Part shown: positions 24,981 to 40,572 of the stretch, piece after piece
Layout of the letters: every line of letters starts with the position of its first letter
Position numbering within the stretch: the stretch's first letter is position 1
Virus record (IMG/VR): IMGVR_UViG_2778261573_000004
Span: 1 to 44,824 of that record
Source of the DNA: a virus
Taxonomy: Duplodnaviria; Heunggongvirae; Uroviricota; Caudoviricetes
DNA: 44,824 nt
Reading direction: 5' to 3' (one strand)
Notes under the pieces: generated by a model
Told to the model about the DNA's origin: nothing
Databases searched by the model: none
Seen by the model: only the letters and a program-made list of their open reading frames with translations
Program-made: the position numbers and the translations under genes

Positions 24981-25009
24981 GCAAATAAAAAAGCCAGCGA
25001 CAGGCTGGC
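24981..25009 (-). terminator. Rho-independent terminator (second of a tandem pair)
   Basis: Minus-strand RNA GCCAGCCUGUCGCUGGC (perfect 6-bp stem) followed by UUUUUUAUUUGC; embedded in a 16-bp direct repeat CGCAAATAAAAAAGCC also found at 25081-25096. Confidence 0.7.
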
Positions 25010-25081
25010 AATGTGAGGGTAAGGCAATGTCGGCTCTCTGGCCGAAGGGTCCCAGGTAGTGGGTTCTGTGTGCTGCGTACC

Positions 25082-25114
25082 GCAAATAAAAAAGCCCCGC
25101 ATAGGCGAGGCTGG
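25082..25114 (-). terminator. Rho-independent terminator (first of a tandem pair), after the peptidase gene
   Basis: Minus-strand RNA GCCUCGCCUAUGCGGGGC (7-bp stem, one mismatch) followed by UUUUUUAUUUGC. Confidence 0.6.
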
Positions 25115-25130
25115 AATCAGACAGGGGGGA

Positions 25131-26033
25131 TTAAGACTGGATATTCCAAATCATTGCGTTACCGTTATGATTTTCAATGATTTTTGCCAGTGGTGCTCCA
25201 CCAAAAGAATGCATGTAGCTGTGATGTATAGTCAAAACCAAATCTTGAAGTACTTGATCACTTTCAAGTTCGGTAACATTCAACCCAATTTTCTGCGCCT
25301 TATCAAAATGAATATGACGCGAGTGGGTATAGGTTGTGTGATGGTTGTTTAACTCTGAACAAACATGTGTTGCTTTTGATTCTGCCTCAGGATCATTATC
25401 AAACATGCCTGTCATAAGCCAATGCTTAACAATCTCATTTGCCCATTTGATTGCTTTCTCACACTCGCCGATGATCGTCGGGTTTAGCTTTTGAAGAATG
25501 AACTGCCACATCTGAACAGCTGCGGGATTTTGAAAAATTTCCGTCTGCGCACGATTCCATTCTTCAATGATGGCATGGGTGGAGAAACCGTTGAACTGAG
25601 GATCAATTGGGCCAATGTTGGACTGTTTACCCATGATGATTTCATTGGCACAACATGCAAGCATAGTTCCGCAGGACATTGAAATCATAGGAACAATTGC
25701 TCTGATGTTAGTTCCAAACTTCGACCTTAAGTAATGCCCGATTGATTCCAAAGCGGCAATATCACCACCTGGAGTATGAAGTATCAAATCCAACCCTTTT
25801 GATACATCTAAACCATTGATGGCTGTCATCAACCCGTTCTTATCATCATCAGTCATCTGAGTAAGATGGCGTACTTCTGCACCACCATGCTGTAACCACC
25901 CTGAGTAATATGTGATTACATTTCTTCCAGTATGATTCGAAAGTTGAGATAAGTATTTACGGCGAACCTCATCCATAGGACTTTTATGGGCGAGAGCCGT
26001 TATCTCGCCCAGTACGTCGCTCCAATTAGGCAT
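25131..26033 (-). CDS. ClpP/S49-fold serine peptidase (resembles SDH-family Clp-fold proteinases), cargo gene
   Basis: 300 aa; LILHTPGGDIAALESIGHYL and MISMSCGTMLACCANE resemble the PGG and nucleophile-Ser motifs of ClpP/SppA-fold peptidases; AT-rich codon usage unlike flanking genes; unrelated in sequence to the prohead protease at 16336-17202. Confidence 0.55.
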   Translation of the reverse strand: MPNWSDVLGEITALAHKSPMDEVRRKYLSQLSNHTGRNVITYYSGWLQHGGAEVRHLTQMTDDDKNGLMTAINGLDVSKGLDLILHTPGGDIAALESIGHYLRSKFGTNIRAIVPMISMSCGTMLACCANEIIMGKQSNIGPIDPQFNGFSTHAIIEEWNRAQTEIFQNPAAVQMWQFILQKLNPTIIGECEKAIKWANEIVKHWLMTGMFDNDPEAESKATHVCSELNNHHTTYTHSRHIHFDKAQKIGLNVTELESDQVLQDLVLTIHHSYMHSFGGAPLAKIIENHNGNAMIWNIQS

Positions 26034-26036
26034 AAA

Positions 26037-26237
26037 TCAGTACGTGTAAAGTTGATGACTTGTAGTTTGGTTTTGCTTCGATTGTGTAGCGGTACCTTGT
26101 GAGTACCAAACACCTGTGTTTCCACTCGTACTAGTTTGCTGTGCCATTACACGAGAAGCGAAGTTGTTAACAGTTTCACCAGTCAACATTTCTGCCGGTT
26201 TGATATTGTAAACATCGTAGAACTCAGCTGGGGTCAT
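26037..26237 (-). CDS. Small hydrophilic protein of unknown function, co-transcribed with the peptidase
   Basis: 66 aa, Thr/Ser/Gln-rich; strong RBS AAAGGAG 8 nt before ATG 26237; stop 3 nt before the peptidase ATG. Confidence 0.45.
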   Translation of the reverse strand: MTPAEFYDVYNIKPAEMLTGETVNNFASRVMAQQTSTSGNTGVWYSQGTATQSKQNQTTSHQLYTY

Positions 26238-26320
26238 AATGATAGCTCCTTTTATAGCGCTACATATAGTGCCTGTGCCAAGGGGGACATACTATATGTG
26301 CCATTGTTGTCATATTTAAA

Positions 26321-26345
26321 TGTGCAAAAAGCCTCAAAAGAGGCT
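26321..26345 (-). terminator. Rho-independent terminator downstream of lysis cassette A
   Basis: Minus-strand RNA GCCUCUUUUGAGGC followed by UUUUUGCACAUUU. Confidence 0.55.
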
Positions 26346-26607
26346 TGAAAAAGATGCAAAAATACTATCTATGACGTGACTATAGCTACTTACCCACAGT
26401 TTATACAAGCCAAAAATGCTAAATTCAGATAATCCTATTCGCTGAAAAACTACACAAAAGCTACGTTCATCTTGTCATTAGATAACGTCAGTAACTTTCA
26501 CTGGATCTAAGCCATTGGTGAAAAAGCTAATTGCATGATGAAGCACTGTAATGTAGCAGTTGAGGTTGTTAAATGAGAATCACCCTAACAATGTCAACGG
26601 ACATTAT

Positions 26608-27144
26608 TCATTTTCGTAACTTCTCAATCTCTCGTATACCCGCCAGGTTATTGTTGCCCTTCTCAATAACAGCCAGCAAAGGTTCAATCCAGAGGACGGC
26701 CTGGCAATACGTCATTGAGCTGGCGGCAGCGGTACTATCATCGGTTGCGTTAGTGTTCCCGGTATCGGGGTGCATTGCGCTGGCACGTAAACGGTACGCG
26801 TATTTGAGCAGCCCACCAGCGACATCAGCAGGAACAGGCAGATCACAGGTCTTTTCACGTCGGAGAATCTCCCGGTATTCGATGACAGTTTTCTCAGTAC
26901 CGGCATCGATCAGCGAGTTAAGGCGGTTGGCGTTCTCTGCTATCTGGTTAAACCGATTGAAGTTGAAAGCCTGTGTAGTTATCACCGTCGCCTGCAGCGC
27001 GTTATCATTACGTAATACCCGATTCTCACTCTGTTCTGTTTCAAGAGCTGAGCGGCTACGAACCAGTAATACGCTAAGCACTGCAATAATGATTACGACA
27101 GCCACCAGCAGAACCGCAACAATCGTAATTTTTCTGGGTTTCAT
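26608..27144 (-). CDS. i-spanin Rz-like (lysis cassette A)
   Basis: 178 aa with N-terminal TM helix (ITIVAVLLVAVVIIIAVLSVLLV) and periplasmic coiled-coil; follows the SAR endolysin with ATGA overlap. Confidence 0.7.
   Translation of the reverse strand: MKPRKITIVAVLLVAVVIIIAVLSVLLVRSRSALETEQSENRVLRNDNALQATVITTQAFNFNRFNQIAENANRLNSLIDAGTEKTVIEYREILRREKTCDLPVPADVAGGLLKYAYRLRASAMHPDTGNTNATDDSTAAASSMTYCQAVLWIEPLLAVIEKGNNNLAGIREIEKLRK
26712..26906 (-). CDS. o-spanin Rz1-like (embedded in Rz)
   Basis: Embedded +1-frame ORF with lipobox LVGCS and Pro-rich C-terminus; the true start may be the internal GTG at 26858. Confidence 0.5.
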   Translation of the reverse strand: MPVLRKLSSNTGRFSDVKRPVICLFLLMSLVGCSNTRTVYVPAQCTPIPGTLTQPMIVPLPPAQ

Positions 27145-27716
27145 CAGAATACCCCCGGAACTGATACCGGAATGCCAGGGTTAAGCGGCCCGAGTCCATC
27201 CCCCAGAACCTGAGGTTTCTCTGCCCACAGGCAAACTTCACGCTCAATCTCACGCCTCGTGATTAAACCCTTCCACTGTTTGTCACCAGCATAGATCCAG
27301 CGCCGCAGTTGTTCGCATGCGCCTTTCGAATCACCCTGGTTGATTTTTCGTAACAGTGTGGAGGTTTTGAAGTTTCCCGCGCCTACGTTATACGCAAATG
27401 AGTACAGCGCCCCTCTCATCGTTTCGGGGATCGGAGCATTGATATATGGGTTAATCTGTCGGGCGACAATATTCAGGTCTTTATCCAGCAGCGCCTGGCA
27501 CTCTGCTTTGGTGTAGGTCTTGCCGAGGATAATATCTTTACCAGTATGGCCCCAGCATACAGTCCACACTCCAACAACATCCCGATAAGGCTGATAGCGT
27601 ACACCTTCAAGGCCATCATTACCCGTTGGGCCAGTAATCAACGCCGCAGCGATAGCAATAGCGCCAGCGGGTATCGCTGCAATAACGCTATTCTTCAGCT
27701 TTGGTGGCATAGCCAT
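27144..27716 (-). CDS. SAR endolysin (phage 21 R21-like lysozyme)
   Basis: N-terminal Gly/Ala-rich signal-anchor-release domain ([19 protein letters not shown]) followed by [28 protein letters not shown], matching my recollection of the phage 21 lysozyme catalytic region. Confidence 0.85.
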
Positions 27717-27966
27717 TGCGCCGATCCTCCCGTTCTTTCCAGCGGAAATACCAGTTCACTGCACAGGTAATAACAGTGCATGCGATACCGACAATAATTG
27801 CCCAGTCGCTCAGGCTTAACCCTGCAATTCTGTCGGCCAACATCCAGGACACCTCTTTTGCTGTTTTAGCTGTTTCGGCATATGCCTTCGCTGATACACC
27901 GCAGCCGGTCAGCGTGGTTCCTGTTCCATATGAAAGTCTGCTGTAAATGGTGCTCATTCTGGTCAT
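27688..27966 (-). CDS. Pinholin (S21-like) with dual-start motif
   Basis: 92 aa; N-terminus MTRM gives two in-frame starts separated by Arg (holin/antiholin arrangement); C-terminus [13 protein letters not shown] resembles the phage 21 pinholin tail. Confidence 0.75.
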
Positions 27967-28173
27967 AGCCTCACCTCCGATTTTTCGGATGGCGCTGTGT
28001 GTGTGTTTGAAAAGGGTCAGGCTTCACGGGCTGGATTTATCAACAAAGCACGTAGCGGATGATTCCCGTGAGCCTGAAATTGATGAATATGTCTGAAATA
28101 ACTAGACCATTAGTAAAACAACTCGATAAATGTGGTTAAATGAGACTACGTTCTCACAACTTAATTAGTACCA

Positions 28174-28344
28174 ATGATTATCAAGCCCTGTCCCTACTGC
28201 GGAAAGTTAATTAACCCAGAATCACTTGTGTGTAGCCACTGCCGGATAGTGAATCCTTTTGTGAAGGCCAGCAGAAGAGAAAAAGCGAAGAATGTATTAG
28301 TAATCGCTCTCGTTGCTGCTTTTTTAATTTGGATGATTCTCTGA
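28174..28344 (+). CDS. Small zinc-ribbon membrane protein (56 aa; below the ORF-track size cut-off)
   Basis: MIIKPCPYCGKLINPESLVCSHCRIVNPF...VLVIALVAAFLIWMIL: CxxC-N9-CxxC zinc ribbon plus C-terminal TM helix. No clear RBS, so confidence is low. Confidence 0.3.
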   Translation: MIIKPCPYCGKLINPESLVCSHCRIVNPFVKASRREKAKNVLVIALVAAFLIWMIL

Positions 28345-28816
28345 GTTGCCAGTTTTCAATGAAGATAATGCGGGCAAAAAAAGCCTGCTCGGACGAACAG
28401 GCATGAAAAATAACAATACCGTCAAGGAGGTGGCGCCGGGTGCCTCCCGGTGGAACAGCCCCAGCCGACTAGTTCCGCGCAAACAAACCTGGACAAAAAA
28501 GTTTGACTGGTCGCCCCTCCGCATAGGGGGATTCACCACACTAAAAATTTAACATCTGATGAAACTCGTTTCAATGCTCTACGACGATGTGACAGGGGTA
28601 TTGATGCAATGCAAATAGACCTACTCTCGGAGCAAGGATAACAACTTTTCCGTACTCTCTTCTGTAAGTTCGAAGTGGATCAATTCTTCGCCATTCTTGA
28701 GAATGTAGAGTTCTTTACTCCCTTTATCATCAGTAGTGATATCAAGGGCATAAATATCAGGCTTGCATAGCGTAATGCCGCCTGTCGTAACTAGCGTCTT
28801 ATTAACGAGGTGACTC

Positions 28817-29092
28817 ATGGGGATACTCTCCGAACTGGATTCTTTACTGGAAAAAATCCCACTGTGGAAAAGGTTAAAAACAGTACCCGACGAAGTGGAT
28901 CGTCTCAAACAGCAGGTCGCCGAGCTTGAGGCATACATCAAATCCAGCGGTGGGGAGAAATGCCCCAGATGCTCACAGATGAGCTATAGCCTTGACCGAA
29001 CCGTAGATGACCCCGATTTCATTGGGCTGGGAGTTCAGAGAGACTATTACAAATGCTCCAGCTGTGGGTACGAAACCTTTAAACAGCGCTGA
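28817..29092 (+). CDS. Coiled-coil plus C-terminal zinc-ribbon protein
   Basis: RBS GAGGTG 5 nt before ATG 28817; CPRC...CSSC zinc ribbon; followed by terminator at 29108-29142. Its start codon overlaps a divergent minus-strand ATG (28818) of a possible 65-aa ORF at 28621-28818. Confidence 0.4.
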   Translation: MGILSELDSLLEKIPLWKRLKTVPDEVDRLKQQVAELEAYIKSSGGEKCPRCSQMSYSLDRTVDDPDFIGLGVQRDYYKCSSCGYETFKQR

Positions 29093-29107
29093 GATTGCAG
29101 AAACGAC

Positions 29108-29142
29108 AAAGCCCAAGGCGTTAACCTCGGGCTTGTATTTTT
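29108..29142. terminator. Hairpin terminator, possibly bidirectional (candidate tR-prime for the late operon)
   Basis: AAGCCCAAGGCGTTAACCTCGGGCTT followed by TGTATTTTT on the plus strand; on the minus strand the same hairpin is followed by UUGUCGUUUCUGC; about 150-180 nt downstream of the Q-like gene stop. Confidence 0.45.
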
Positions 29143-29289
29143 GCTCACTTTCGAGCCGTTACGTTGCTTTTAAAGACTGCCGCTGTCTAACTGCTTTTTA
29201 CTGATGGCTTGCCGACCAACTTTTTTCAAACTTCATGCCGCCACTTAAAGTTAAGGCAGCATATCAAAGTAGACTCAAATATGACGCAT

Positions 29290-29979
29290 TTAATCCAGTT
29301 TTGCAAGACTTGAGTCTAAATTTGTCGCCTTTTGTTGTGAACGTGATCGCGTTACCTGCAAAAGAGAATCGCTATCAAGGCGCCGCAAGGTGGTTTTCAT
29401 CTCCTCCCACCGTTCTGTAAACGTTTCTGACCAGTTCTTCGGGGTCACTCCGACCATGGCGGCAAGCTTTTGGTATTCATACGTCTCACGCCCTGCCAGC
29501 TCTGCTTTCACGTCCTGAGCCGCGAGCCAGACAAGCTTCTTCAGGCGCTCCATCGTTTTGCCGGCCACCTTCTTCGCGCCGAGCTGCTCCCGGAACTCTG
29601 CCCACGCCCATTGAGTGATTTCCACCTGATAGCACCAGCGCACGTTCTCGCTATAGTTCCATAGCAGCCACGCTTTCTGATGGTCTTCAAGCGACAGAAC
29701 AGCGCGGCGCCACGATGCGGTCCCGTACTCTACCGGGCCCACCAGCGCGATAGACGAGCCCTTAGCGCGGGACTGGTTGCCGCTCATCGGCTGGCCGTCA
29801 GGATTGACCATGCGCTGCTTATCCTTGTCGAATACCTTTTTCCGGCCCCGACTCCGCGCCGTCGCGGTGAATTGCGCGTTCTCGGCGAAAGCTACCAGCT
29901 GCCCTTTCGTCGCCCCGCTGAGGTCTGCGGTCGCCACAATGAGCTGCTGACGTACGTATTCCAGTTGCTGACTGTTCAT
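29290..29979 (-). CDS. Putative late-gene regulator / antitermination protein Q-like
   Basis: 229 aa in the canonical Q position (after rusA, before the terminator and lysis genes); assignment is mainly positional. Confidence 0.45.
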   Translation of the reverse strand: MNSQQLEYVRQQLIVATADLSGATKGQLVAFAENAQFTATARSRGRKKVFDKDKQRMVNPDGQPMSGNQSRAKGSSIALVGPVEYGTASWRRAVLSLEDHQKAWLLWNYSENVRWCYQVEITQWAWAEFREQLGAKKVAGKTMERLKKLVWLAAQDVKAELAGRETYEYQKLAAMVGVTPKNWSETFTERWEEMKTTLRRLDSDSLLQVTRSRSQQKATNLDSSLAKLD

Positions 29980-30088
29980 GCGGCTTCCTTCTGTGGCTGG
30001 TTGGTTTTGGTCTGGCTGTGCTTTGCTATTGGCGGCAGGTTGGCGCGCTTAACGCTTTCGGCCTGATATCGGGTTATCTCGTCTCTGG

Positions 30089-30448
30089 TCACGGTGCGCA
30101 CTCCCCGATAATGATCTGCCCCTTCTCTCCCCAGACCTTTGTGATGCGGCAATCCCAGATGTGAGCATCATCCTCATAAAGCGCATCCATCAGGGCTTTC
30201 AGCATGTTGTCGCAGTCTGGCTTGGCCTGGTGAGGCTTCCCGGCGAACTCCGCTCGTTTCTTCTTACTCCAGCTTGGTGGCATTGGTAGGACGAATGTCA
30301 CATGTGATCCGGATTCAGGCATGGTCAACTTGCGCAGGCGGACCTCATCGCAAAAAGCGCGGTAACGCATTACAGGTGGACGCTGCTTCCACTTATCCGC
30401 GCGGGTCATGCGAGGCTTGCCGATTGGTGTGATGTCGTAGATTTTCAT
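30089..30448 (-). CDS. rusA: Holliday junction resolvase RusA
   Basis: 119 aa; KPDCDNMLKALMDALYEDDAHIWD matches the RusA catalytic aspartate region. Confidence 0.85.
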   Translation of the reverse strand: MKIYDITPIGKPRMTRADKWKQRPPVMRYRAFCDEVRLRKLTMPESGSHVTFVLPMPPSWSKKKRAEFAGKPHQAKPDCDNMLKALMDALYEDDAHIWDCRITKVWGEKGQIIIGECAP

Positions 30449-30729
30449 GCAGGCACCACCAAGCCACGACGGGCAATCTGAATAATGGTCAGGACGATGG
30501 CGCGATCCATTAACTGGCGGCGCTCGTCACGGCTAAGCCCCTTCCCGTTATCAATCTCTGAATGGCAGGTGACACAGATAGCGGCGGTGGCGCAGTCGTC
30601 TGTCTTCATGCCAATTCCCTTACCTTCATTGCGGTGTGCTACCTGTACGCCCCACGCTCCGCAAAGGACGCATTGCTCAATCTGGCCGACTGCGGCGAGC
30701 CACTTCTTGCTGCGGTAGGTTTTACTCAT
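30445..30729 (-). CDS. DUF1364-like Cys/His-rich protein (YbcO-like)
   Basis: Start at [10 protein letters not shown]; CVLCGAW...HR...[15 protein letters not shown] Cys/His cluster; precedes rusA as ybcO does in the DLP12 prophage (from memory). Confidence 0.55.
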
Positions 30730-31390
30730 GGTCACCACCTTGCACCTGAACCAGCGTGAGGTTTCCGCAAAACACCGCTCCTGTGTCGATGTACATCTGG
30801 TTGGCATACTTCAGGGGCTGGCGCGCAGGGGTGTGGCCGAAGATAAACAGATCAGCACCGGCTATCGGCGAGACAATGCTGCCCTGAGCGTCGCTAACCC
30901 GCTCACGATTCCAGATGACCATGTCTTTCGGGACCGGCTTGTCGAACGCATATTCGTTATGCGGGTAGTCAGCGTGGCAAATTACGATTTTCCGATCGGA
31001 GGTAACCAGCTCGATGATGAGTGGTAACTCAGCTGCCTTGTGAACCAGAGCCTTAGCCAGCACCTCTTTGTCATAGTCGAGATTGAAGAACCAACCGCCA
31101 CCGTTTACCAGCCAGTGATTGACGTTTCCATGCTCTGAAAGCCCATCAACCATCATCTGCTCATGGTTACCGCGCACTGCCCTGAACCACGGCATAGTAA
31201 TCAGATCCAGGCACTCGACGTTTTCCGCGCCGCGGTCAACAAGGTCACCAACCGAGATCAGCAAATCACGCGCAGGGTCGAACGAAACCTTTTCGAGCTC
31301 ATTCATCAGCAGCGTGTAGCACCCATGCAGATCGCCGACGACGAAGATATTGCGCCAGTCAGCGCCATTAATTCGTTGATACATGCTCAT
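30722..31390 (-). CDS. Ser/Thr protein phosphatase (lambda PPase / NinI-like metallophosphoesterase)
   Basis: Start at MSMYQRI; motifs GDLHG, GDLVDRG and GNHE are diagnostic of the PPP/calcineurin-like family. Confidence 0.85.
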
Positions 31391-31557
31391 GCTGATTTTC
31401 TCCTCGCTGCGAGACGCAGCCATTTCTGATCCACCAGGCGGGCGGTGTAGTCTTTCAGGGTCGGGATATCGGACGGCTTAACCGCGGGCTTAGGCTTGCG
31501 GCGCGCCGGAACGCGAAAGATTTCGTTTGTGATGACGCGGGAAAGTGGAGTTGACAT
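31387..31557 (-). CDS. ninE: NinE-like small protein (56 aa; below the ORF-track size cut-off)
   Basis: [36 protein letters not shown] resembles lambda NinE as I recall it; start overlaps the ninB stop (TGATG) and its stop overlaps the phosphatase start (ATGA). Confidence 0.55.
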
Positions 31558-32012
31558 CAGGCCTCCTGCTTATCGCGCAGCACCTGAAATTCGCTGCTTT
31601 GAGGGATTGTGAGCACCAGGCCAAACTGAGCGCACCAGCCTTCCACCTGGCACATGAAATGGTGCATGTCGCCAGTGTCCAGATCGGACGTGTGGCGGAG
31701 TTCTAATTCAATCGTCTTAATTCCGGTGACGAAATCGGTGTACTCAACCTCTTCATAACCCAGATAAGTTTTTTTGAGGTTTCGCTTTACCCATGCAGGC
31801 GTTGCGTCAGTGCGCCCAGACTTGATCAGGTAGTCGCTTATTTCCTTGTACCAAACGTGGCTCAGACTATTTTGTGAAAGGCTTCTCTTCTCGCGCCAGT
31901 CTTTGAGTTGGAGCCGGAAGCACTCACCGTTTTCGAGAAGTGGCTTCAGATGCTGAGTGATAGCACCAAGATTTCCACGGTGTAGCTTGATGCCGTCTTT
32001 GGAGATAATCAT
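31557..32012 (-). CDS. ninB: NinB (Orf-family recombination protein)
   Basis: Start at MIISKDGIKL (ATG 32012); NinB-like size and position in the nin region. Confidence 0.75.
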   Translation of the reverse strand: MIISKDGIKLHRGNLGAITQHLKPLLENGECFRLQLKDWREKRSLSQNSLSHVWYKEISDYLIKSGRTDATPAWVKRNLKKTYLGYEEVEYTDFVTGIKTIELELRHTSDLDTGDMHHFMCQVEGWCAQFGLVLTIPQSSEFQVLRDKQEA

Positions 32013-32380
32013 ACGGCCTCCTTGACGGAAACCGCAGAATGCAGAAAATCGCAGGTGCATGTCTGCATCTGTGACAAGGCGATGAGTTCAGATTGTGGTC
32101 GCATTTAAGTCCCCTTAAATGCGCAGAAGTCTTACCGTCGGGCGTTCAACTCCGACGACGGTTAAATTATGGCTGGTTGATTATGGAAAATCAACATAAG
32201 AGAAAGGCCTTCGAAGAGGCCATTGGTGTCTTGATGCTGGTTTATAAATCTCTACCCGCCGGGATGATTCACAAAATACATTTGCAATTAGTACTTCAGG
32301 GAAGGCTGGATTTGATCTAGCTTGTTAAACAATCCGTAGATTATGATATCGGGATAAAAAACAGAAGGGATGGCCTGGTT

Positions 32381-32818
32381 ATGAATAATGGGGTGTTTAC
32401 TACCGTCATTACTGGTGTTTCAGTGTTTGTGTTGGGTCAGATATTTGTAAAATCCATGCTTGATCCTTACATTTCATTCAAGGAACATTTGGGGATGGTT
32501 TCGGCCATTCTCCTGCGTGAGCAAAATAAAATCCTTAGCATCAATGCGAAAAGCGAAGTAATAAACGAAATCAAACAGGCGTCAGCTTTGCTGTTGTCAA
32601 AATCTAATGCCATACCCTTGTATGGAATGTTGGCTACTTTACGTCTCCTTCCTCGATACAAAGATGTCCTTAAGGCCTCGTGGAATCTGAATCTTATTGC
32701 GTCTATTTTAGAAGAAGGAAGAAACACCACCCCCAAAGAAACCTATACAACTATTTCTAATTCTCTCAATGCGGTAGGCAGTAAGTTAGGGGTGGTTGTT
32801 ACATACAGACCATCTTAG
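32381..32818 (+). CDS. Membrane-anchored protein of unknown function (AT-rich opposite-strand cargo gene)
   Basis: 145 aa; N-terminal TM helix (VFTTVITGVSVFVLGQIFV); region 32100-32820 is AT-rich relative to flanks; convergent with the DUF551-like gene. Confidence 0.55.
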   Translation: MNNGVFTTVITGVSVFVLGQIFVKSMLDPYISFKEHLGMVSAILLREQNKILSINAKSEVINEIKQASALLLSKSNAIPLYGMLATLRLLPRYKDVLKASWNLNLIASILEEGRNTTPKETYTTISNSLNAVGSKLGVVVTYRPS

Positions 32819-32819
32819 A

Positions 32820-33437
32820 TCAGCAAATAATATCTTCCTGCTGCGGCGCTGCCGGCAGCGGCATCCAGTGGGTTGGGCTCCATGATGCTCCTGGTATAAT
32901 CCAGCCATCTATATCTGCATCCGGATGCCCAGGGCAATTTGTTGCCCACTTCATTGCATAGCCGCCAGGAGCTGATTGCCATGGCGCAGCAACTATCACA
33001 CCTGTTGATGGGCTTGGCATCCGCTTACTGCAAGCCACCCAACCGTCTGTCAACTCATCACTATTACTTACAGGTTCGGCCTGAAGCATGGCGGCGCGAT
33101 AGGCGTTCCAGCCGACAGCTTTTCCGTGTTCAAACGCGCTGTCAAAGTCATCATCAATTTCCATCGCAGCGGGCACAGATACCGGCGCTGGCGGGGCGGT
33201 GTAAAGCGGCGTTACTTCTCGCAGCGGGTCGGCATAAGCATTGCCACTATCGAAGCTGACGTTGTTTTTTGCCCCGCCTCCTGACAGCAACCACGCCACC
33301 GGCTCCGCTTCGAGCGATGCCAGCGCTATACGCGCCATCTCTTTGACAACGTCACAGTTTTTATTTCCTTCGCAATCATCCATCAAAAGCCAATCGTCAT
33401 TGATTATTTCTTTAATCTTATCCCGTGAAAGTTCCAT
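32820..33437 (-). CDS. DUF551-like protein
   Basis: 205 aa; C-terminal GWVACSKRMP...WATN...THWMPLPAAP resembles DUF551 domains common in lambdoid nin regions (from memory). Confidence 0.55.
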   Translation of the reverse strand: MELSRDKIKEIINDDWLLMDDCEGNKNCDVVKEMARIALASLEAEPVAWLLSGGGAKNNVSFDSGNAYADPLREVTPLYTAPPAPVSVPAAMEIDDDFDSAFEHGKAVGWNAYRAAMLQAEPVSNSDELTDGWVACSKRMPSPSTGVIVAAPWQSAPGGYAMKWATNCPGHPDADIDGWIIPGASWSPTHWMPLPAAPQQEDIIC

Positions 33438-33637
33438 TAATTCACCGCCTTAGCTTTACGCTCTGCTTCACTAAAATCCCAGTCAACACGATGCGATATT
33501 TCAATTGCCGCCCTAACGGAATGCTCAATCATGATGTCGAGCTTTTGAAGTGTCATGGCCATATTTGGATTTCGAGCCAATATTTCTGCGCGAAGAATTT
33601 GCCAGTCATTGCATGTTTCAAGTAATGAATTAGCCAT
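33437..33637 (-). CDS. Small hypothetical protein
   Basis: Start at MANSLLETCNDW (ATG 33637) directly after the upstream stop; 66 aa. Confidence 0.35.
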   Translation of the reverse strand: MANSLLETCNDWQILRAEILARNPNMAMTLQKLDIMIEHSVRAAIEISHRVDWDFSEAERKAKAVN

Positions 33638-34025
33638 TATCTTTACCCCGCGCTCCATATGCAGATAAGCACTCTTCAAATCCAGCCTGATTATCCGTTT
33701 GACCAAAACTGAAGCCATGCTGAAGACCATGACGAAATGCGCTATCTTGCAATTTATCTGCGCTATCGAGCTTCGCTTCCAGTTCAGCGATTCGCTTCTC
33801 TGCGGCTTCCAGCGATGCCAGCAGCGCCAGCACGGTGACGGGGTTGGCTGCGGCGATGAATACTGAATCGACCTTGAGGCAATGTTGTGCTACCGCTTTC
33901 ACACCAACCTTCACCTCATATCCGCGCGCACCTTTGTGTGGCTTGTAAGGCTCCCAATTCCCCCATGATGCAGCGTTTGCCGCATTGGCTGCTTCACGTA
34001 ATGCGCGTTTGTCGATGTTGCTCAT
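33630..34025 (-). CDS. Ead/Ea22-like protein
   Basis: Start at MSNIDKRALREAANAA; coiled-coil segment; early-region accessory protein type (from memory). Confidence 0.45.
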   Translation of the reverse strand: MSNIDKRALREAANAANAASWGNWEPYKPHKGARGYEVKVGVKAVAQHCLKVDSVFIAAANPVTVLALLASLEAAEKRIAELEAKLDSADKLQDSAFRHGLQHGFSFGQTDNQAGFEECLSAYGARGKDNG

Positions 34026-34366
34026 ACCCCTACCCTCCCCCAAACCATCAATACCCTTCTCATCGCCGCGCTGTTGCGGCACTCCTGGCAGATCACGTTT
34101 GCCTCTGTACGCTGCACCAGCTTCGAATTTCCCTTCGGCATAGCCGGGATTGTTTCTGGTGCGTATTTCATGCCGTAATCGGTCAGCCGATAAAGCCGCT
34201 GTCCGTGCTTGCCTTCGAACTCGATCAGGCCGTCTGCCAGCAGCGTGCTCACCGTTCCGGATATCTTTTTGGTGTCCATGCCGATAAGCCCTGCCAGTTT
34301 GGCGTTGTTCAACCCTGGGTTGTTGCGCAGGGCTGCCAGCACCTGCTCACGGATTGTTATGTTCAT
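34022..34366 (-). CDS. Putative winged-helix DNA-binding protein
   Basis: Start at MNITIREQVLAALRNNPGLNNAKLAGLIGMDTKKISGTVSTLLADGLIEF; HTH-like; ATGA overlap with the downstream gene. Confidence 0.4.
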   Translation of the reverse strand: MNITIREQVLAALRNNPGLNNAKLAGLIGMDTKKISGTVSTLLADGLIEFEGKHGQRLYRLTDYGMKYAPETIPAMPKGNSKLVQRTEANVICQECRNSAAMRRVLMVWGRVGV

Positions 34367-34367
34367 G

Positions 34368-35057
34368 TCACACCATCCCGTTCGACTTGTTGCGGTTGTA
34401 CTTGGCCAGCAGCAGCTGGATCGGCGTCGGCCCTTGCTCGGCAGCTGGTGCGGCAATAGCCCGGCGTACCGGCGGCACTGGCTTACCCTCGGTGACGCGC
34501 CTTTCCCACATGTCCAGCAGATCGCCTGCCTCGCGTGCCAGTTCACCATGCGTTAACTGGCGCTCGGTGCTGCGGTGGCGCAATTCTACGCAAATGTGGT
34601 ACATGACCGGCTGCGACCATGGAAATTGCTCGCTGGAGATGAATTCGAACGAGCGGTTACGCCAGTCCCAGTATTCGGCGATCACCTGGTCAACGTTGAC
34701 GCCCAGCGCGCCGCCGCTCTGCTTGCACCAGGCGACGAACTGGCCCGGCGACGGCAGGAATGGGCGCTCCTGGCGGCGGGCAATGCGCATGCCGGCATCG
34801 ACCTGAGCCATGGTGTGGATCCCGTTCTCCTGAAACGCCAGCAGCCACTGACGGCGGAATTCGTTCAGGTCTTCCTGGGTGCGGAAGTTCGCCATGCTGG
34901 CCGGGAACGCGGCGCGCAGCTCGTTGAACAGCTTGTTGAATACCTGCGCCACCTGCTCGACCGGCGCGCACTCCTGGTACTGCTCTGGCAGGTTATGGGC
35001 CATGCGGCTCATCTGCTCGCGGTCGTGGTTACGCATCTGCTCTGCAAGAGATTTCAT
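34368..35057 (-). CDS. P: Replication protein P (helicase loader)
   Basis: MKSLAEQMRNHDREQMSRMAHNLPEQY and RRQERPFLPSPGQFVAWC closely match lambda P (MKNIAAQMVNFDREQMRRIANNMPEQY; RRQNRPFLPSPGQFVAWC) as I recall it. Confidence 0.9.
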   Translation of the reverse strand: MKSLAEQMRNHDREQMSRMAHNLPEQYQECAPVEQVAQVFNKLFNELRAAFPASMANFRTQEDLNEFRRQWLLAFQENGIHTMAQVDAGMRIARRQERPFLPSPGQFVAWCKQSGGALGVNVDQVIAEYWDWRNRSFEFISSEQFPWSQPVMYHICVELRHRSTERQLTHGELAREAGDLLDMWERRVTEGKPVPPVRRAIAAPAAEQGPTPIQLLLAKYNRNKSNGMV

Positions 35058-35962
35058 CGGATCACCCCATAGGCCCAGTCAGTGTTGTTGAAGTCCAGAT
35101 CTGGCTTGACAGCGCGCTGCTCACCTCCGGCGTTACGCTGCATTGTCAGCTTGTCCCACTGCTTACGCAGGCTTTCGGGACTCAGGATGTTGGTCTGCCA
35201 GAAGTGGTGTTTGCTAGCCCAGTCATACAGCGCGCAGATGTCCTGGTGCGACCGGTTGTCTATCTGGCGCATCAGGCGAACAGTGTTAGACCAGGAGGTC
35301 ATGTCCGGGGCTTTGCAGGTTGGGTTAATCAGCTTCACCCTGGAGGAAATCCACTTAGCTGTCTCGAGGTCTTCAGCAGAGCCCCACTTCGCACCGGATG
35401 GTGTGTAGACCGCAGCTTCAGGATGAGTTGATAAAAATTTCTTCAGACGTGCGTCAGAGGATTCGTCAGAATTCTCGGACGAAGATCTTTTAATACTGTT
35501 CTTGTTCTTGTATTGGGTGTCTACCGTTTTCGGGAAGGTTATTCCTGATTTCGGGAAGGATTTTCCCGTTTTCGGGAATTTTCTTCCCGTTTCCGGTTTG
35601 TCTAAAATCCATGCTGAAAGGTCAGTGTTTACACCGACGATTTTCATCATGCCCTGCTTCTGTGAAAAGATGATTTTGCGTTCTGCGAGAGACTTAAGCG
35701 CGTCCGATACATGCGTATCGCTCAGGCCCGTAAGCTCGGCAATAACCGTATTTGTCACGCGGTCCTGTTTCTTGTTCCAGCCGTAGGTAAGCCAGATCAC
35801 CGCCTCAAAACATTGCCATTCCCGGCCTGACAGTCTCAGGCGAGGCTTAAGCTGTTGGATCTCGTTAGCGACCTTGGTATACCCGTTCGACAGGTCGGCC
35901 ATACGACCTCCCGGTTGTTCGGTTTTATTTGGGAAATTGATTATTTCAGCGGTGTTTGACAT
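35054..35962 (-). CDS. O: Replication initiator protein O
   Basis: Start at MSNTAEIINF (lambda O begins MTNTAKILNF); TYGWNK motif; the gene contains the iteron array. Confidence 0.9.
   Translation of the reverse strand: MSNTAEIINFPNKTEQPGGRMADLSNGYTKVANEIQQLKPRLRLSGREWQCFEAVIWLTYGWNKKQDRVTNTVIAELTGLSDTHVSDALKSLAERKIIFSQKQGMMKIVGVNTDLSAWILDKPETGRKFPKTGKSFPKSGITFPKTVDTQYKNKNSIKRSSSENSDESSDARLKKFLSTHPEAAVYTPSGAKWGSAEDLETAKWISSRVKLINPTCKAPDMTSWSNTVRLMRQIDNRSHQDICALYDWASKHHFWQTNILSPESLRKQWDKLTMQRNAGGEQRAVKPDLDFNNTDWAYGVIR
35524..35602. repeat. ori iterons (four direct repeats of about 21 bp, core TTTCGGGAA) inside the O gene, with adjacent AT-rich segment 35481-35520
   Basis: CCGTTTTCGGGAAGGTTATTCC / TGATTTCGGGAAGGATTTTCC / CGTTTTCGGGAATTTTCTTCC / CGTTTCCGGTTTGTC; encodes the repeated FPK(T/S)G linker of O; same arrangement as ori-lambda. 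Confidence 0.75.
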
Positions 35963-36047
35963 ACTTACTCCCGTTACTTGCCGTAACACAGTGTGATAAG
36001 GGCCTTTGAAGTTACCGCTTCAAGGGCTTTTTCTTTTCTTGTGCCTC

Positions 36048-36593
36048 TCATATAACCCCCAGCATCGATGTAACCATCGTCATCAGCGGTCCTACCTGCT
36101 CCGGCATGAGGCGGAACAGCGACGCTATACCCTCGCTTACCTCTTTGAGCTTCTGATGCTCTGGAGCGTCCAGCAGCACGGCCTGTTTAGCCTCGGCACA
36201 CTCTTTCATCGCAGAGGCGATCAGCGACATCGTGTCGTTCTGCTGCGCCAGACGGTTTCGGTACTCCAGCGGCAGGACCGACATGATTGCCGGGGCCAGC
36301 TGGCGAATGTTGTTGGCGGCGTATTCGGTATCGCCATCAATCCATCGAAACACTTTCTGCATCTGGCGGTGCGAGTCAGTCGGGATATCCAGACCGGTTC
36401 CGCCGGACGCCCGCCACTCTTCCACGATCAGCGCGGCGACAAATTCACGGCTTCGGCAATCAGCTGCCCAGGCGCGAACAGCAGCGCGGATCCCATCGAT
36501 GTTTAACGCCGCGGAATCAGGCTCCCGGCGATTCTGGTAAATCATCGCCGTTGGCGAAAATTTGTTACCTTGTTGATACGCAAGTGAATGCAT
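36048..36593 (-). CDS. Regulatory protein in the CII position (possibly YdaT-like)
   Basis: 181 aa immediately downstream of the Cro-like gene and upstream of O; family assignment is tentative. Confidence 0.35.
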   Translation of the reverse strand: MHSLAYQQGNKFSPTAMIYQNRREPDSAALNIDGIRAAVRAWAADCRSREFVAALIVEEWRASGGTGLDIPTDSHRQMQKVFRWIDGDTEYAANNIRQLAPAIMSVLPLEYRNRLAQQNDTMSLIASAMKECAEAKQAVLLDAPEHQKLKEVSEGIASLFRLMPEQVGPLMTMVTSMLGVI

Positions 36594-36610
36594 TGCTTTC
36601 CCTTTCGTGG

Positions 36611-36844
36611 TTAGGCCGCAGTATCACGCGGCGATGCGAATACCAGGCTTTCTTTTAGGACCGGAGCCTGGCGGTGAAAATTCTTCGTGCCTTTCTCGAT
36701 AGCAGATGCCATTTCTGGAGATGCCCGGCGATTTCCGTAGGCGATCTGGTCCAGGTAACCTGGCGTCGTGTTAGCCAACTTTGCGAGCTGCGCCCATTCG
36801 TCGGTAGTGGCGGCCTTGCGCCAGCGGTGTAGTTCAGTGCTCAT
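36611..36844 (-). CDS. cro: Cro-like HTH transcriptional regulator
   Basis: 77 aa, HTH-like segment (WAQLAKLANTTPGYLDQIAYGNRRAS); divergent from the CI gene across the operator region. Confidence 0.6.
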   Translation of the reverse strand: MSTELHRWRKAATTDEWAQLAKLANTTPGYLDQIAYGNRRASPEMASAIEKGTKNFHRQAPVLKESLVFASPRDTAA

Positions 36845-36876
36845 TGGTGTCTCCGGGTGAGTCGTTTGATTTGGAG

Positions 36877-36942
36877 TTTAGCGTTATGCTAAATACTACG
36901 CAAGCATCATTTAGCAATTTGCACATTTATCATTTTGCTAAA
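36877..36942. promoter_or_regulatory. OR-like operator cluster between cro and cI
   Basis: Perfect palindrome TTTAGCGTTATGCTAAA at 36877-36893 and near-copy TTTATCATTTTGCTAAA at 36926-36942, plus half-site TTTAGCAATTTGCA between them. Confidence 0.55.
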
Positions 36943-36960
36943 AGCAGTAACAATGCAGGT

Positions 36961-37638
36961 ATGGAAAATAAAGAAATCAGAAAAGCCAACCTGGAAGCGC
37001 TGTACGAGAAGCGTCAGCACGAGTCTGGAATGACCAAAGCGCAGTTTGCCGAGCTCATCGAGACAAGTCCGGCTGCGCTTAGCCAGCTACTGGGACCAAA
37101 CCCTCATCGCAATATCGGCGATAAGATGGCTCGCAAAATTGAAACTGCGCTTGATCTGCCTTTTGGCTGGATGGATGTTTTACACGCCAGTGAAGAACCT
37201 TCGAACGTTGCATTTCGAGGACTGAACGAGACAAAAGGAAGTTATCCTGTAATCAGCTGGGTAAGCGCGGGGCAATGGATGGAAGCTGTAGAACCTTATC
37301 ACCGAAGAGCGATAGATCGCTGGTATGACACGACTGTTGACTGCTCAGAAGATTCATTCTGGCTGGACGTTAAAGGGGATTCTATGACCTCCCCGGCTGG
37401 ACTGAGCATACCCGAGGGAGCAGCGATACTTGTTGATCCTGAAGTCGAGCCGCGCAACGGAAAGCTGGTTGTCGCGAAGCTAGAAGGCGATAACGAAGCG
37501 ACCTTTAAGAAGCTTGTAATCGATGCCGGCAGACGCTTCCTAAAGCCCCTTAACCCCGCATATCCAATGCTAGAAATTAATGGAAACTGCAAAATCATCG
37601 GCGTTGTGGTTGATGCCAAAATACTAAACATCCCATAA
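36961..37638 (+). CDS. cI: CI-type prophage repressor (HTH plus S24 LexA-like peptidase domain)
   Basis: Start at MENKEIRKANLEAL; N-terminal HTH; C-terminal VKGDSM (Ser nucleophile) and VVAKLEG (Lys) of S24 autopeptidases. Confidence 0.9.
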   Translation: MENKEIRKANLEALYEKRQHESGMTKAQFAELIETSPAALSQLLGPNPHRNIGDKMARKIETALDLPFGWMDVLHASEEPSNVAFRGLNETKGSYPVISWVSAGQWMEAVEPYHRRAIDRWYDTTVDCSEDSFWLDVKGDSMTSPAGLSIPEGAAILVDPEVEPRNGKLVVAKLEGDNEATFKKLVIDAGRRFLKPLNPAYPMLEINGNCKIIGVVVDAKILNIP

Positions 37639-37654
37639 CCTCACGCAAAACCCC

Positions 37655-37683
37655 TCAAGCCCGCCATCGCGCGGGCTTTTTTA
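37655..37683 (+). terminator. Rho-independent terminator after cI
   Basis: AGCCCGCCATCGCGCGGGCT followed by TTTTTTA. Confidence 0.65.
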
Positions 37684-37754
37684 CGTCCCGAATTCCTTCG
37701 CTGTAAATTTTTAATCGCTTATTAATCAATACGCTAAATAAAACCATTCAACAA

Positions 37755-37796
37755 TTTAGCATTTTGCTATTGCGCATAATTTAGCATCACGCTAAA
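37755..37796. promoter_or_regulatory. OL-like operator cluster downstream of cI
   Basis: Perfect palindrome TTTAGCATCACGCTAAA at 37780-37796 and near-copy TTTAGCATTTTGCTAT at 37755-37770; same consensus as the OR sites. Confidence 0.5.
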
Positions 37797-38214
37797 TTTA
37801 CCCCATCGAAACGAAACATCGACAGCTGAGCGAAGTTAGCCAGCGGCGGACAGCAAGTCGCCTGCTTTTTAACAACATGCAGATTTACAGCGTCAATGAC
37901 CTGTTAAGACCCCTACACGTAAACGTGCTGTATCACTGGGTGCGATCCGGTCGGTGAGAGAGTATCCCCGCGCGAGAGCGAGAACGGCGTGAGAACGGGC
38001 AACACTGGCAGGGAGTTGGCGCTGACCAATACAGGGAATGTTATGGGATGTGGTGAAGGGTTCATGGACGGGAATATGTCGCACGTAAAGCGGCGAGGCC
38101 CGAGGAGCTATTGCCGAAGATAAGTAGGCCGAATCGGGTCGAAATGGGTCTCCCACCTACCACATCGCCAAAGCATTTCTCCCGCATCAGCGGGTAACGA
38201 CAGAGGGTAAGGGG

Positions 38215-38511
38215 ATGATCGACGACATCAAGCGCATCGACTCAATGATAAATGCGCTTCGCAATATGAAACAGGACATCAAGCGTCAGCAGAAACTAAG
38301 TGAAATAAACAGTTTAGACCTGTCGCCGAAGCAAGCTCAAAAGCGCAATGCCGATGCTGACTGGATTGCGATGGAACAGATTAAGCGTCGGCATGAGCTG
38401 CACGCTCTGTCTGTTGAGCTTGGGTTCGCTGAGCGCCGGGAAAGTTATGCTCCATTTGAATTAACTGACGGGTGGCACCGATTCGACCACAAGCCGCGCG
38501 AACCTCAATAG
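38215..38511 (+). CDS. First early-left ORF, basic protein of unknown function (N-like position)
   Basis: 98 aa; RBS GGGTAAGGGG before ATG 38215; lies after a 400-nt untranslated leader from the OL region. Confidence 0.45.
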   Translation: MIDDIKRIDSMINALRNMKQDIKRQQKLSEINSLDLSPKQAQKRNADADWIAMEQIKRRHELHALSVELGFAERRESYAPFELTDGWHRFDHKPREPQ

Positions 38512-38667
38512 CCGCCTAACCAGCGGCTTTTTCATACCTGGAGTCATTTACGAGTGGCTCAAGTTATGACAACCGGCGGCCATCCACCGCCCATTGAAAC
38601 ACTGAATAAATGCGTTGAAGTCTTGTATTAACCGTTCCGTTCGCCGCGATAAGGCCAAGAGGAAATC

Positions 38668-38796
38668 ATGGTAAACCAGCAGCAGATCAGAGAGGCCCAA
38701 CGGCTCGCGTCGTTCGCGGTGCTCCATCGCAATGCTCCGGCGTGGGAAGAAGCAAAACGCCTTTACGCCGTCGCCATCGGGAGGACTCTTCACTGA
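38668..38796 (+). CDS. Small ORF (42 aa), translationally coupled to the next gene
   Basis: RBS AAGAGGAAA before ATG 38668; stop overlaps the next ATG (TGATG). Confidence 0.3.
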   Translation: MVNQQQIREAQRLASFAVLHRNAPAWEEAKRLYAVAIGRTLH

Positions 38797-38993
38797 TGGA
38801 AACTTTATTCGCACTCGTCCTGACCGTGGCAATGACCAACGGTGATTATCAGGATGTCATTCTCGGCGTTTACGACAGCCAGCAGGAATGCAGCCTGGCA
38901 GCTACAGAGCAGAAAGTGTCAGCTGAGTGCTGGCCGGTAGAAAGCATCATCCGCAACGGCGAGTTCCCGGCGAAATCCATCGCGCAGCAGTAA
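38796..38993 (+). CDS. Small protein with hydrophobic N-terminus (65 aa)
   Basis: METLFALVLTVAMTNGDYQ...; start inferred from coupling with the upstream ORF. Confidence 0.35.
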   Translation: METLFALVLTVAMTNGDYQDVILGVYDSQQECSLAATEQKVSAECWPVESIIRNGEFPAKSIAQQ

Positions 38994-39063
38994 CCACCCT
39001 ATTCAACCGATCGGCCTGGCATTACGCGGGCGGGATCTGCACATCCAAATTTCAGGAGAAACC

Positions 39064-40035: not shown

Positions 40036-40042
40036 GGCAACC

Positions 40043-40327
40043 ATGAACGCATACCTCACTTACGACCGCATCGAAGATCGGCGCTGGGCTGAGCAGCAGA
40101 TCACCGACGAGAAAGAGAAGTGGATCGACGACCGGGCGCAGAAAATCATCGACATGATGCCAAAAGAGCCATCCGGCCTCTTCCACTTCTCGGTCCCGAT
40201 TGACTCCAGCCCATACGAAGGGCTTCGCAGCGATAAAGCTGGCGAGGCCTACAACGATTTCATTTCGGCAGTTGCTTACGCCCAGGCGGAATACGACTGG
40301 GATCACCGTACCGGCTGCCCGTTTTAA
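40043..40327 (+). CDS. Hypothetical early protein
   Basis: 94 aa, tightly packed in the early-left operon. Confidence 0.45.
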   Translation: MNAYLTYDRIEDRRWAEQQITDEKEKWIDDRAQKIIDMMPKEPSGLFHFSVPIDSSPYEGLRSDKAGEAYNDFISAVAYAQAEYDWDHRTGCPF

Positions 40328-40338
40328 GGAGAGAGTTA

Positions 40339-40572
40339 ATGGCCCGCAGAAATTTACTCCACAAATCGAAATTAGCCGACTTTAAGGAGTGGCTCTCGAT
40401 GAACGGAATTCAGTGGAGAGATGGGAAAGGTAGTTACCAGGTGATCCAGGTGAATACGGGATGCGGCTGGACACCGATTTATGACAGCAGCAAAGAGCGA
40501 CGCGAGCATTTCACTATTCAGGATGCTCTCAGGCCTTTGGTAAACAGATTCATCAGAGAGGCTGCAAAATGA
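40339..40572 (+). CDS. Hypothetical early protein
   Basis: 77 aa, RBS AAGGAGAGAG before the ATG; 4-nt overlap with the next gene. Confidence 0.45.
   Translation: MARRNLLHKSKLADFKEWLSMNGIQWRDGKGSYQVIQVNTGCGWTPIYDSSKERREHFTIQDALRPLVNRFIREAAK

Follow-up and report, generated by a model that had tools for sequence, protein, structure and literature searches.

The viral DNA analysed here (IMG/VR record IMGVR_UViG_2778261573_000004, 44,824 nucleotides, hereafter the window) contains, between the gene of a late antiterminator Q and that of a holin, an interval that is probably the late-operon leader of a lambdoid prophage of the phage 82 type, together with three mobile inserts. Over positions 27960-29295 the window is 100% identical to a prophage of E. 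coli NCTC9040, a genome whose RefSeq annotation, produced by PGAP, lists zero genes between holin and Q. The 1.3-kb gap left blank there holds at least two real genes and a known small RNA (sRNA). The late genes flanking the interval lie on the minus strand, so the leader runs from high to low coordinates, beginning with a late promoter (pR') and its terminator (tR'). Downstream of tR' come the inserts, which are separately mobile: a two-gene cassette, the sRNA STnc100 and a 56-aa zinc-ribbon open reading frame (ORF). Overall, this architecture, with its cargo and a known sRNA, is ordinary for a Q82-type lambdoid late leader; what has yet to be described is the conserved pair of head-to-head genes in the cassette, along with a hairpin in the holin leader. 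Every feature listed in an earlier sequence-only reading of this DNA was found, with offsets of a few bases only.

The Q gene (29290-29979, minus strand) encodes a protein of 229 aa that belongs to PF06323 (4e-84, 282 bits), the Q82 family (PMC9388147), and to phrog_304, "anti-termination protein Q-like" (5e-97). A candidate pR' (29278-29306, minus strand) begins within the last Q codons, with the -35 element TTGCAA at 29306-29301, a 17-nt spacer and the -10 element CATATT at 29283-29278; the transcription start read from this arrangement would lie near T29271. Taking T29271 as the start, a predicted sigma-70-dependent pause element follows (29255-29266), comprising TGATATGCT at 29266-29258 and GCC at 29257-29255. 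Its parts are an extended -10 TG at +6/+7, a -10-like TATGCT at +9 to +14 and the discriminator GCC at +15 to +17, with the pause itself predicted at T29247/A29246 (+25/+26) and hence a T at +25. The late strand therefore reads TTGCAA-17-CATATT-11-TGATATGCT-GCC, then TTAACTTTA. The composite pattern has one site in the window and none in 100 shuffles, and the pause motif TGaTATGCT-GCC likewise occurs only once. Judged from these sequence elements, the promoter and the pause element can be placed to the base.

Conservation of these elements was assessed in an alignment of the sequence following Q at 11 loci whose Q is of the PF06323 type, with Q identities of 51-100%. Across all 11 loci TTGCAAAA, the A and T positions of the -10 (nAnnTT), TGATAT and GC are invariant and the flanks differ. 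A variant, TGATAGTTTGCC, is still present at a locus where Q is just 27% identical. As regards a putative Q-binding element, the alignment shows conservation of TTGCAAAA and of the spacer. An intrinsic terminator lies approximately 60-140 nt downstream in every Q82-type locus examined, and these terminators are mutually unrelated in sequence. The pattern TTGCAA-17-nAnnTT-11-TGATATnnT-GCC followed by a terminator can thus serve as a locator signature for the late promoter of Q82-family prophages.

The published account of phage 82 pR' describes a pause element nearer to TATAAT than that of lambda, an extended -10 and a discriminator GCC at +15-17 (PMC5001585). It also describes an AT-rich stretch after the GCC and a pause at +25/+26 with U at +25 (PMC5001585). 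The window fits this description in its extended -10, its GCC at +15-17 and its T at +25. The wider likeness comprises a Q of PF06323, a promoter directly after Q with its -35 in the last Q codons, a pause element at +6 to +14, an AT-rich stretch behind the GCC and a terminator downstream. The window differs in that its Q protein and leader sequence are not those of phage 82, and in that the T-run of its tR' has been shortened by an insertion. No structure of the Q82 antitermination complex had been reported as of PMC9388147.

Downstream of pR' lies a hairpin (29100-29143, both strands) whose stem at 29109-29134 comprises 11 bp, six of them G-C pairs, and a 4-nt loop (terminator scan). Its late-strand tail is TTTGTCGTTTCT, and its plus-strand tail, GTATTTTTG, ends a 91-aa gene of the adjoining cassette; owing to the A-rich stretch opposite, the hairpin should be a good terminator for the plus strand. 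The same hairpin is found without the cassette in the related loci L117 and L048, where its tail is TTTTTGC, and in the Klebsiella phage ST899-OXA48phi17.1, also cassette-free, where the T-run is full (tail TTTTTTAT). The leader of that phage is 98.9% identical to the window, and homology ends exactly at 29108, the base of the hairpin. Alignment of the cassette-free L117 and L048 with the cassette-bearing L132 and L050 delimits an insertion of approximately 490 bp (28614-29105), with its right junction at TGCATTGCATCA and its left junction inside the T-run of tR'; across the latter the sequence reads GGGCTTT followed by GTCGTTTCT (window 29100-29109 against L258 2010-2000). These comparisons support a hairpin at 29109-29134 that pre-existed the cassette as a bidirectional tR' and is now shared by the 91-aa gene. 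The sequence-only reading had assigned it (as 29108-29142) to the 91-aa gene as that gene's own terminator, an assignment that its presence in cassette-free relatives contradicts. The same reading had also inferred a pR'/tR' pair from the position of the hairpin; comparison supports this, given the Q82-family Q, promoter and pause elements that are invariant across Q82 loci, and the hairpin with a full T-run in cassette-free relatives.

We propose that RNA polymerase would initiate at pR', a constitutive sigma-70 promoter overlapping the end of the Q gene, and would pause near +25 as sigma-70 re-binds the extended -10-like TGaTATGCT-GCC. Without Q, transcription would stop at tR' (29134-29109) and release a leader RNA of approximately 170 nt. 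Q loaded at the pause would permit read-through of tR' and of the STnc100 terminator into the holin, endolysin and spanin genes. In Stx phages, the short transcripts that run from pR' to tR' are known to be sRNAs (StxS; PMC7547250). The window resembles these and lambda 6S RNA in that a constitutive promoter with an early terminator should yield such a leader RNA in lysogens; it differs in that the leader has no sequence similarity to them and no Hfq binding or trans role is known for it. The interruption of the late-strand T-run by the cassette junction suggests that termination at tR' may be weak. In that case tR' may terminate less efficiently here than in relatives, the STnc100 terminator would serve as a back-stop, and the late operon of this prophage may be leakier.

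Several observations weigh against the assignment of the interval to a phage-82-type leader with cargo. The likeness to phage 82 pR' was judged from a verbal description and not from the literal sequence. The promoter agrees with the consensus at only 8 of 12 positions, and for this reason a generic promoter scan did not list it. Start, pause and antitermination in this prophage are predicted from its sequence. The late-strand T-run of tR' is broken by the cassette junction (TTTGTCGTTTCT). No consensus promoter for either cassette gene was found in the window or in the eight homologous loci scanned, and PGAP calls none of the three small ORFs in the NCTC9040 genome. Finally, in loci with a DUF1133 gene and no Q82-type gene, the hairpin and the cassette travel together approximately 45 nt after the DUF1133 gene, which indicates that the hairpin is not exclusively a tR'.

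This last point could mean that the hairpin at 29109-29134 is no tR' but was brought in by the cassette, in which it would terminate the 91-aa gene, with late control confined to the STnc100 terminator or to points beyond it. In E. coli MIN9 and L050 both hairpin and cassette do sit right behind the DUF1133 gene without a Q82-type promoter, and of the two tails the plus-strand one, GTATTTTTG, is the better T-run. However, relatives that lack the cassette have the identical hairpin, equally far from pR' and with a canonical late-strand T-run, and the homology of the Klebsiella phage halts exactly at the hairpin base, 29108. We therefore regard arrival of the hairpin with the cassette as improbable and retain its identification as a pre-existing tR'. 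The DUF1133 protein at the Q position (E. coli MIN9 L005 3677-4255, L014 and L050) shows weak similarity to a Q21-type protein (25.7% identity over 175 aa, E 8e-6), and DUF1133 may be a divergent antiterminator family.

The cassette itself is polymorphic at a fixed site. It is absent from L117, L048 and L258 and present in L132, L050, L005 and L014, and the same block lies behind the DUF1133 gene in E. coli MIN9, L050 and Raoultella. The suggestion that the small genes are cargo accordingly holds for a two-gene cassette that close relatives lack even as they retain the same hairpin. It resembles the Q-to-S morons of lambdoid phages (stx genes, transfer RNAs (tRNAs), HicAB and others) in its presence or absence at a fixed site downstream of tR', in having one gene oriented against the late operon and in sharing a terminator with the phage. 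It differs in being a tiny gene pair with head-to-head overlapping starts, and in that no promoter of its own was found at the nine loci. In Salmonella (L011 1177-3237 and L012) a homologous cassette encoding proteins of 92 and 66 aa stands beside HicA/HicB genes in the same Q82-to-holin interval, which shows that the site gathers several cargo modules.

The first cassette gene (28817-29092, plus strand) is antisense to late transcription and encodes a 91-aa protein with a long N-terminal helix and a C-terminal CxxC...CxxC zinc ribbon. The second (28621-28818, minus strand) lies on the late strand and encodes 65 aa. The two start codons lie in CATG at 28816-28819, where they have A28817 and T28818 in common, and the GAGGTG of the 91-aa gene is at 28807-28812; the two ORFs with overlapping divergent ATGs are present just as first described. 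Homologues of the 91-aa protein with 49-81% identity occur in Klebsiella, Photorhabdus, Xenorhabdus, Morganella, Arsenophonus, Salmonella, Ewingella, Achromobacter and Chromobacterium. These span two proteobacterial classes, are 91-93 aa long and conserve all four cysteines. Homologues of the 65-aa protein were found at 77-98% identity, and each intact locus examined has a partner ORF, 65-105 aa long, whose start codon falls in this CATG; such loci come from Morganella, Salmonella, Xenorhabdus, Photorhabdus, Arsenophonus, Ewingella, Achromobacter and Chromobacterium. The betaproteobacterial partner is just approximately 20% identical to the 65-aa protein, with an open frame and conserved G14, P20 and F49. 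Two proteobacterial classes thus retain the overlap of divergent start codons, which reaches from Enterobacterales to Achromobacter and Chromobacterium. At the six loci with identifiable nearby phage late or structural genes, the 65-aa gene always runs along them and the zinc-ribbon gene against them.

Substitution patterns add to this. For the 65-aa gene the ratio of non-synonymous to synonymous substitution rates (dN/dS) is 0.11 against Trabulsiella, within a range of 0.11-0.4 quoted for the cassette; for the 91-aa gene dN is 0.2-0.5 and dS is saturated. On these comparisons both genes are under purifying selection. Each gene carries, within its codons 3-6, the Shine-Dalgarno sequence of the other, and this is kept at synonymous sites; Leu4-Ser5 of the 91-aa gene, for instance, is invariably CTC-TCN, giving GAGAG on the other strand. 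Homology, selection and the conservation of each Shine-Dalgarno within the other gene together argue that the 91-aa and 65-aa ORFs are both real genes.

These data bear on the view that the small ORFs are chance frames in a non-coding leader in which only the RNA elements are functional. That view would account for the blank PGAP annotation between holin and Q, for the lack of a recognisable promoter for the cassette genes, for the absence of the 91-aa gene from all phages of the INPHARED collection, and for a 56-aa ORF that has close homologues only and a ratio of non-synonymous to synonymous changes near 1:1. It is hard to reconcile with a length of about 91 aa and four cysteines kept down to 49% identity across two proteobacterial classes, with a 65-aa frame that stays open and retains G14, P20 and F49 to approximately 20% identity, with a dN/dS of 0.11-0.4 for the cassette, or with Shine-Dalgarno sequences preserved inside the opposing gene; NCBI moreover annotates homologues of the 56-aa ORF elsewhere. 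For the small ORFs as a whole we give the chance-frame view very little credence.

The structure prediction suggested for the zinc-ribbon proteins was carried out for the 91-aa protein, and the AlphaFold2 model (predicted local distance difference test (pLDDT) 85) comprises a long helix at residues 15-43 and a three-stranded zinc ribbon. For the 65-aa protein, which has no family in Pfam, the model contains a beta-sheet and a C-terminal helix at a pLDDT of only 64. Searches of PDB sequences with profiles of both cassette families returned nothing significant. The zinc ribbons of NrdR and TFIIS/Rpb9 are only 14-19% identical to that of the 91-aa protein, which has neither an ATP-cone nor the TFIIS acidic loop, and the match reflects a very common small fold. 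Assignment of the 91-aa protein to the HNH endonucleases (phrog_8828) was rejected: only profile positions 1-68 of 205, the N-terminal third, match, no HNH domain is present, and the protein ends at residue 91 with its length conserved. A resemblance between the 65-aa protein and the SdrD-B/CarboxypepD_reg repeats of two large adhesins was also discarded, as it sums weak matches to a D/G-rich beta-hairpin repeat and does not represent homology. Nor does the cassette resemble a toxin-antitoxin or defence system, since PADLOC returned only weak zinc-ribbon noise (E 0.005-0.009) and the genes are divergent and not co-transcribed.

The 91-aa product is a probable nucleic-acid-binding coiled-coil/zinc-ribbon protein. 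Our best guess, held with low confidence, is that the cassette encodes a small nucleic-acid-binding regulator and a late-expressed partner, coupled by their antisense 5' overlap. A bolder proposal is that the CATG overlap is itself functional, which would make the cassette a new prophage module. The two messenger RNAs must be complementary at their 5' ends, and on this proposal expression of the two genes would be mutually exclusive. In the lysogen, antisense transcription would supply the zinc-ribbon protein, acting on DNA or RNA polymerase; the 65-aa protein would appear only once Q-modified polymerase passes on the late strand, and the pair would form a lysogeny/lysis toggle. Separately, the hairpin ahead of the holin gene may be an undescribed cis-acting RNA that times lysis; taken jointly, we consider these two claims speculative and rather unlikely.

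The second insert is a copy of the sRNA STnc100 (Rfam RF02076; 28372-28568, minus strand), which matches model positions 1-206, the full length, with a cmscan score of 84.5 bits against a gathering threshold of 47 (E 9e-17). A terminator scan places its stem at 28383-28402 and its T-run at 28376-28382. The minus-strand terminator noted at 28375-28402 in the sequence-only reading is therefore present and is that of STnc100, an sRNA which that reading did not recognise. A promoter scan identified a putative promoter at 28546-28574 (minus strand), TTGAAA-17-TAAATT with an upstream TG and a predicted start near G28539. Its -10 stands at a constant distance before GTGGTGAAUC in loci with otherwise unlike upstream sequence, its spacing to the invariant GUGGUGAAUCCCCCUAUGCGGAGGGGC is kept across STnc100 loci, and homology with E. 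coli KL53 stops at 28539. Expression has been reported for the STnc100 copies of Salmonella and of Shiga toxin-producing E. coli (STEC), and RpoD binding at the Salmonella copies; STnc100 is also present in STEC vesicles (PMC12370729). For the window copy the evidence consists of the promoter-like site and the terminator. Published work makes STnc100 kin to the Hfq-bound sRNA PasD. The window copy shares with these RNAs a full-length match above the gathering threshold, a lambdoid prophage as host, a position between Q and the lysis genes, and a putative sigma-70 promoter and a terminator of its own; it differs in its promoter variant TTGAAA/TAAATT, which is common to Klebsiella and E. coli prophages.

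A scan of IMG/VR yielded 123 STnc100 sites. At all 70 viral loci with a Q-like gene, Q lies upstream on the same strand as STnc100, and at 56 loci a holin or lysozyme gene lies downstream on that strand, with none on the opposite strand. Four Q types precede STnc100 (PF03589, PF06323, PF06530 and DUF1133), at distances of 209 bp to more than 3 kb and sometimes with tRNA or HNH genes between. The same promoter class is found behind the PF03589, PF06323 and DUF1133 types, and PF06530 has two more classes. From these four Q types, variable distances and a common promoter class we conclude that STnc100 is a self-contained unit resident in the Q-to-lysis interval, which it occupies regardless of Q type, and not a Q-specific leader. 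Two tandem STnc100 cores share one Q-to-lysis interval in L027 (663 bp apart) and in L056 (2.1 kb apart). The window has no tRNA genes, whereas relatives do: tRNA genes and an HNH endonuclease gene lie between Q and STnc100 or between STnc100 and the holin gene in E. coli KL53 (L006 3861-4397), in L001 and L002 (2019-2172), and in L002 (2996-3067).

The position of STnc100 allows a different assignment of late control, in which its promoter (28574-28546) and terminator (28402-28376) would be the true Q-dependent pR'/tR', analogous to lambda 6S, and the hairpin after Q would only end the early operon. The -10 of lambda pR' is TAAATT, identical to that of STnc100, and a strong terminator follows some 165 nt downstream; on the late strand, the place of STnc100 is invariably between Q and the lysis genes, and Stx phages provide a precedent for short pR'-tR' transcripts that are sRNAs (PMC7547250). 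Yet Q proteins are promoter-specific, and the STnc100 promoter class nevertheless stands behind PF03589, PF06323 and DUF1133 Qs at 209 bp to more than 3 kb. The STnc100 start is not followed by any -10-like pause element, and a Q82-type pause signature stands directly after Q. In Stx2 phages, furthermore, STnc100 sits downstream of stx2B, far from pR' (PMC12370729). On the grounds of promoter class, variable distance and the pause signature after Q, identification of STnc100 as the pR'-tR' transcript was rejected; we consider it highly improbable and place late control at the promoter within the end of Q. A relationship of STnc100 to the put-type antiterminator RNA of HK022 was also rejected, as no match to the STnc100 model was found at E up to 1 in 15.7 kb of HK022 (record 25000-40751), the Erf-to-endolysin region, within which the early operons should lie.

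The third insert is the 56-aa ORF (28174-28344, plus strand), antisense to late transcription, which encodes CPYC and CSHC motifs and a hydrophobic C-terminus predicted to form a membrane helix, as had been noted from the sequence. It has four close homologues, at 84-96% identity, all of which keep the four cysteines and two of which are named "DUF2116 family Zn-ribbon" by NCBI; against DUF2116 itself (PF09889) the window protein scores 24.6 bits, narrowly short of the Pfam cut-off of 26.8. The Citrobacter homologue precedes another holin family. Codon changes among these sequences number 6-7 synonymous and 5-6 non-synonymous, which is modest evidence for selection. The ORF is probably a real small membrane protein gene, though the evidence is modest, and for this ORF taken alone a chance frame is a serious possibility, if the lesser one.

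Between the 56-aa ORF and the holin gene lies the holin-leader hairpin (28017-28077, minus strand), with arms at 28017-28030 and 28065-28077 forming 13 bp with one bulged A, an apical portion of approximately 35 nt and a folding z-score of -2.45. The inverted repeat recorded here in the sequence-only reading is present, but it is imperfect by one bulged base, and for that reason an ungapped repeat finder missed it. The hairpin recurs in more than 120 viral contigs with covarying arms, as in the pairs GGGUCGCGGG/CCCGACGGCCC, GGCUCACGGG/CCCGAUGGGCC and GGACCGCGGG/CCCGACGGUCC. At 106 of 123 sites an ORF with a preceding Shine-Dalgarno sequence starts 100-119 nt after the start of the element; at least six unrelated holin types are represented among these ORFs, most of which have a dual-start motif. 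On this evidence the hairpin looks like a conserved cis element of lysis cassettes and could be an RNA processing site, a translational control site or a recombination linker. Rfam has no entry for it, and a literature text search with the hairpin sequence returned no relevant paper. An anti-sRNA of the AgvB/AsxR kind, formed by the hairpin and the adjacent CA tract, was considered and discarded after a permissive Rfam search gave no match. Retention of the hairpin ahead of at least six unrelated holin families merits experiment, as does the cassette gene pair with its conserved overlap of divergent starts.

The CA tract, (CA)5 on the late strand (27996-28005), forms part of a conserved spacer, ACCCTTTTCAAACACACA (27996-28016), and corresponds to the (TG)5 tract noted before, approximately 2 nt away. 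This CA-rich spacer recurs in related loci with varying length. A small hairpin predicted at 27972-27994 (minus strand) overlaps the holin Shine-Dalgarno sequence GGAGGTG, and related loci retain the arrangement CCGn...nCGGAGG at the holin ribosome-binding site. The sdi structure of lambda S is the model for a hairpin overlapping a holin ribosome-binding site, and by analogy the 27972-27994 hairpin may act in the same way, ahead of a holin with a dual start (MTRM...).

The holin (27688-27966, minus strand; 92 aa) is the first lysis gene and matches the P21/HP1 holin families (PF16080, 1.7e-11; PF04971, 1.6e-7) and the holin family phrog_20. Its start, MTRM (27955-27966, minus strand), is a dual-start motif, in which a basic residue separates two Met codons. 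A lysozyme gene (27716-27144, minus strand) follows, whose N-terminus (27614-27716, minus strand) is weakly hydrophobic, as is typical of signal-anchor-release (SAR) endolysins; from their sequences the two proteins fit a pinholin/SAR-endolysin pair. Next comes an Rz-like spanin gene (27144-26608, minus strand), and in another of its frames lies a 64-aa ORF (26712-26906, minus strand), without RefSeq annotation, whose lipobox (LVGC) and proline-rich tail are typical of an embedded Rz1-type outer-membrane spanin. On the other side of Q, RusA is encoded at 30448-30089 (minus strand). Downstream of the lysis cassette, a 300-aa ORF (25131-26033, minus strand), labelled only "hypothetical protein" at this position in the NCTC9040 RefSeq record, is another likely cargo gene; its putative counterpart in the near-identical region of E. 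coli KL53 is annotated as "SDH family Clp fold serine proteinase".

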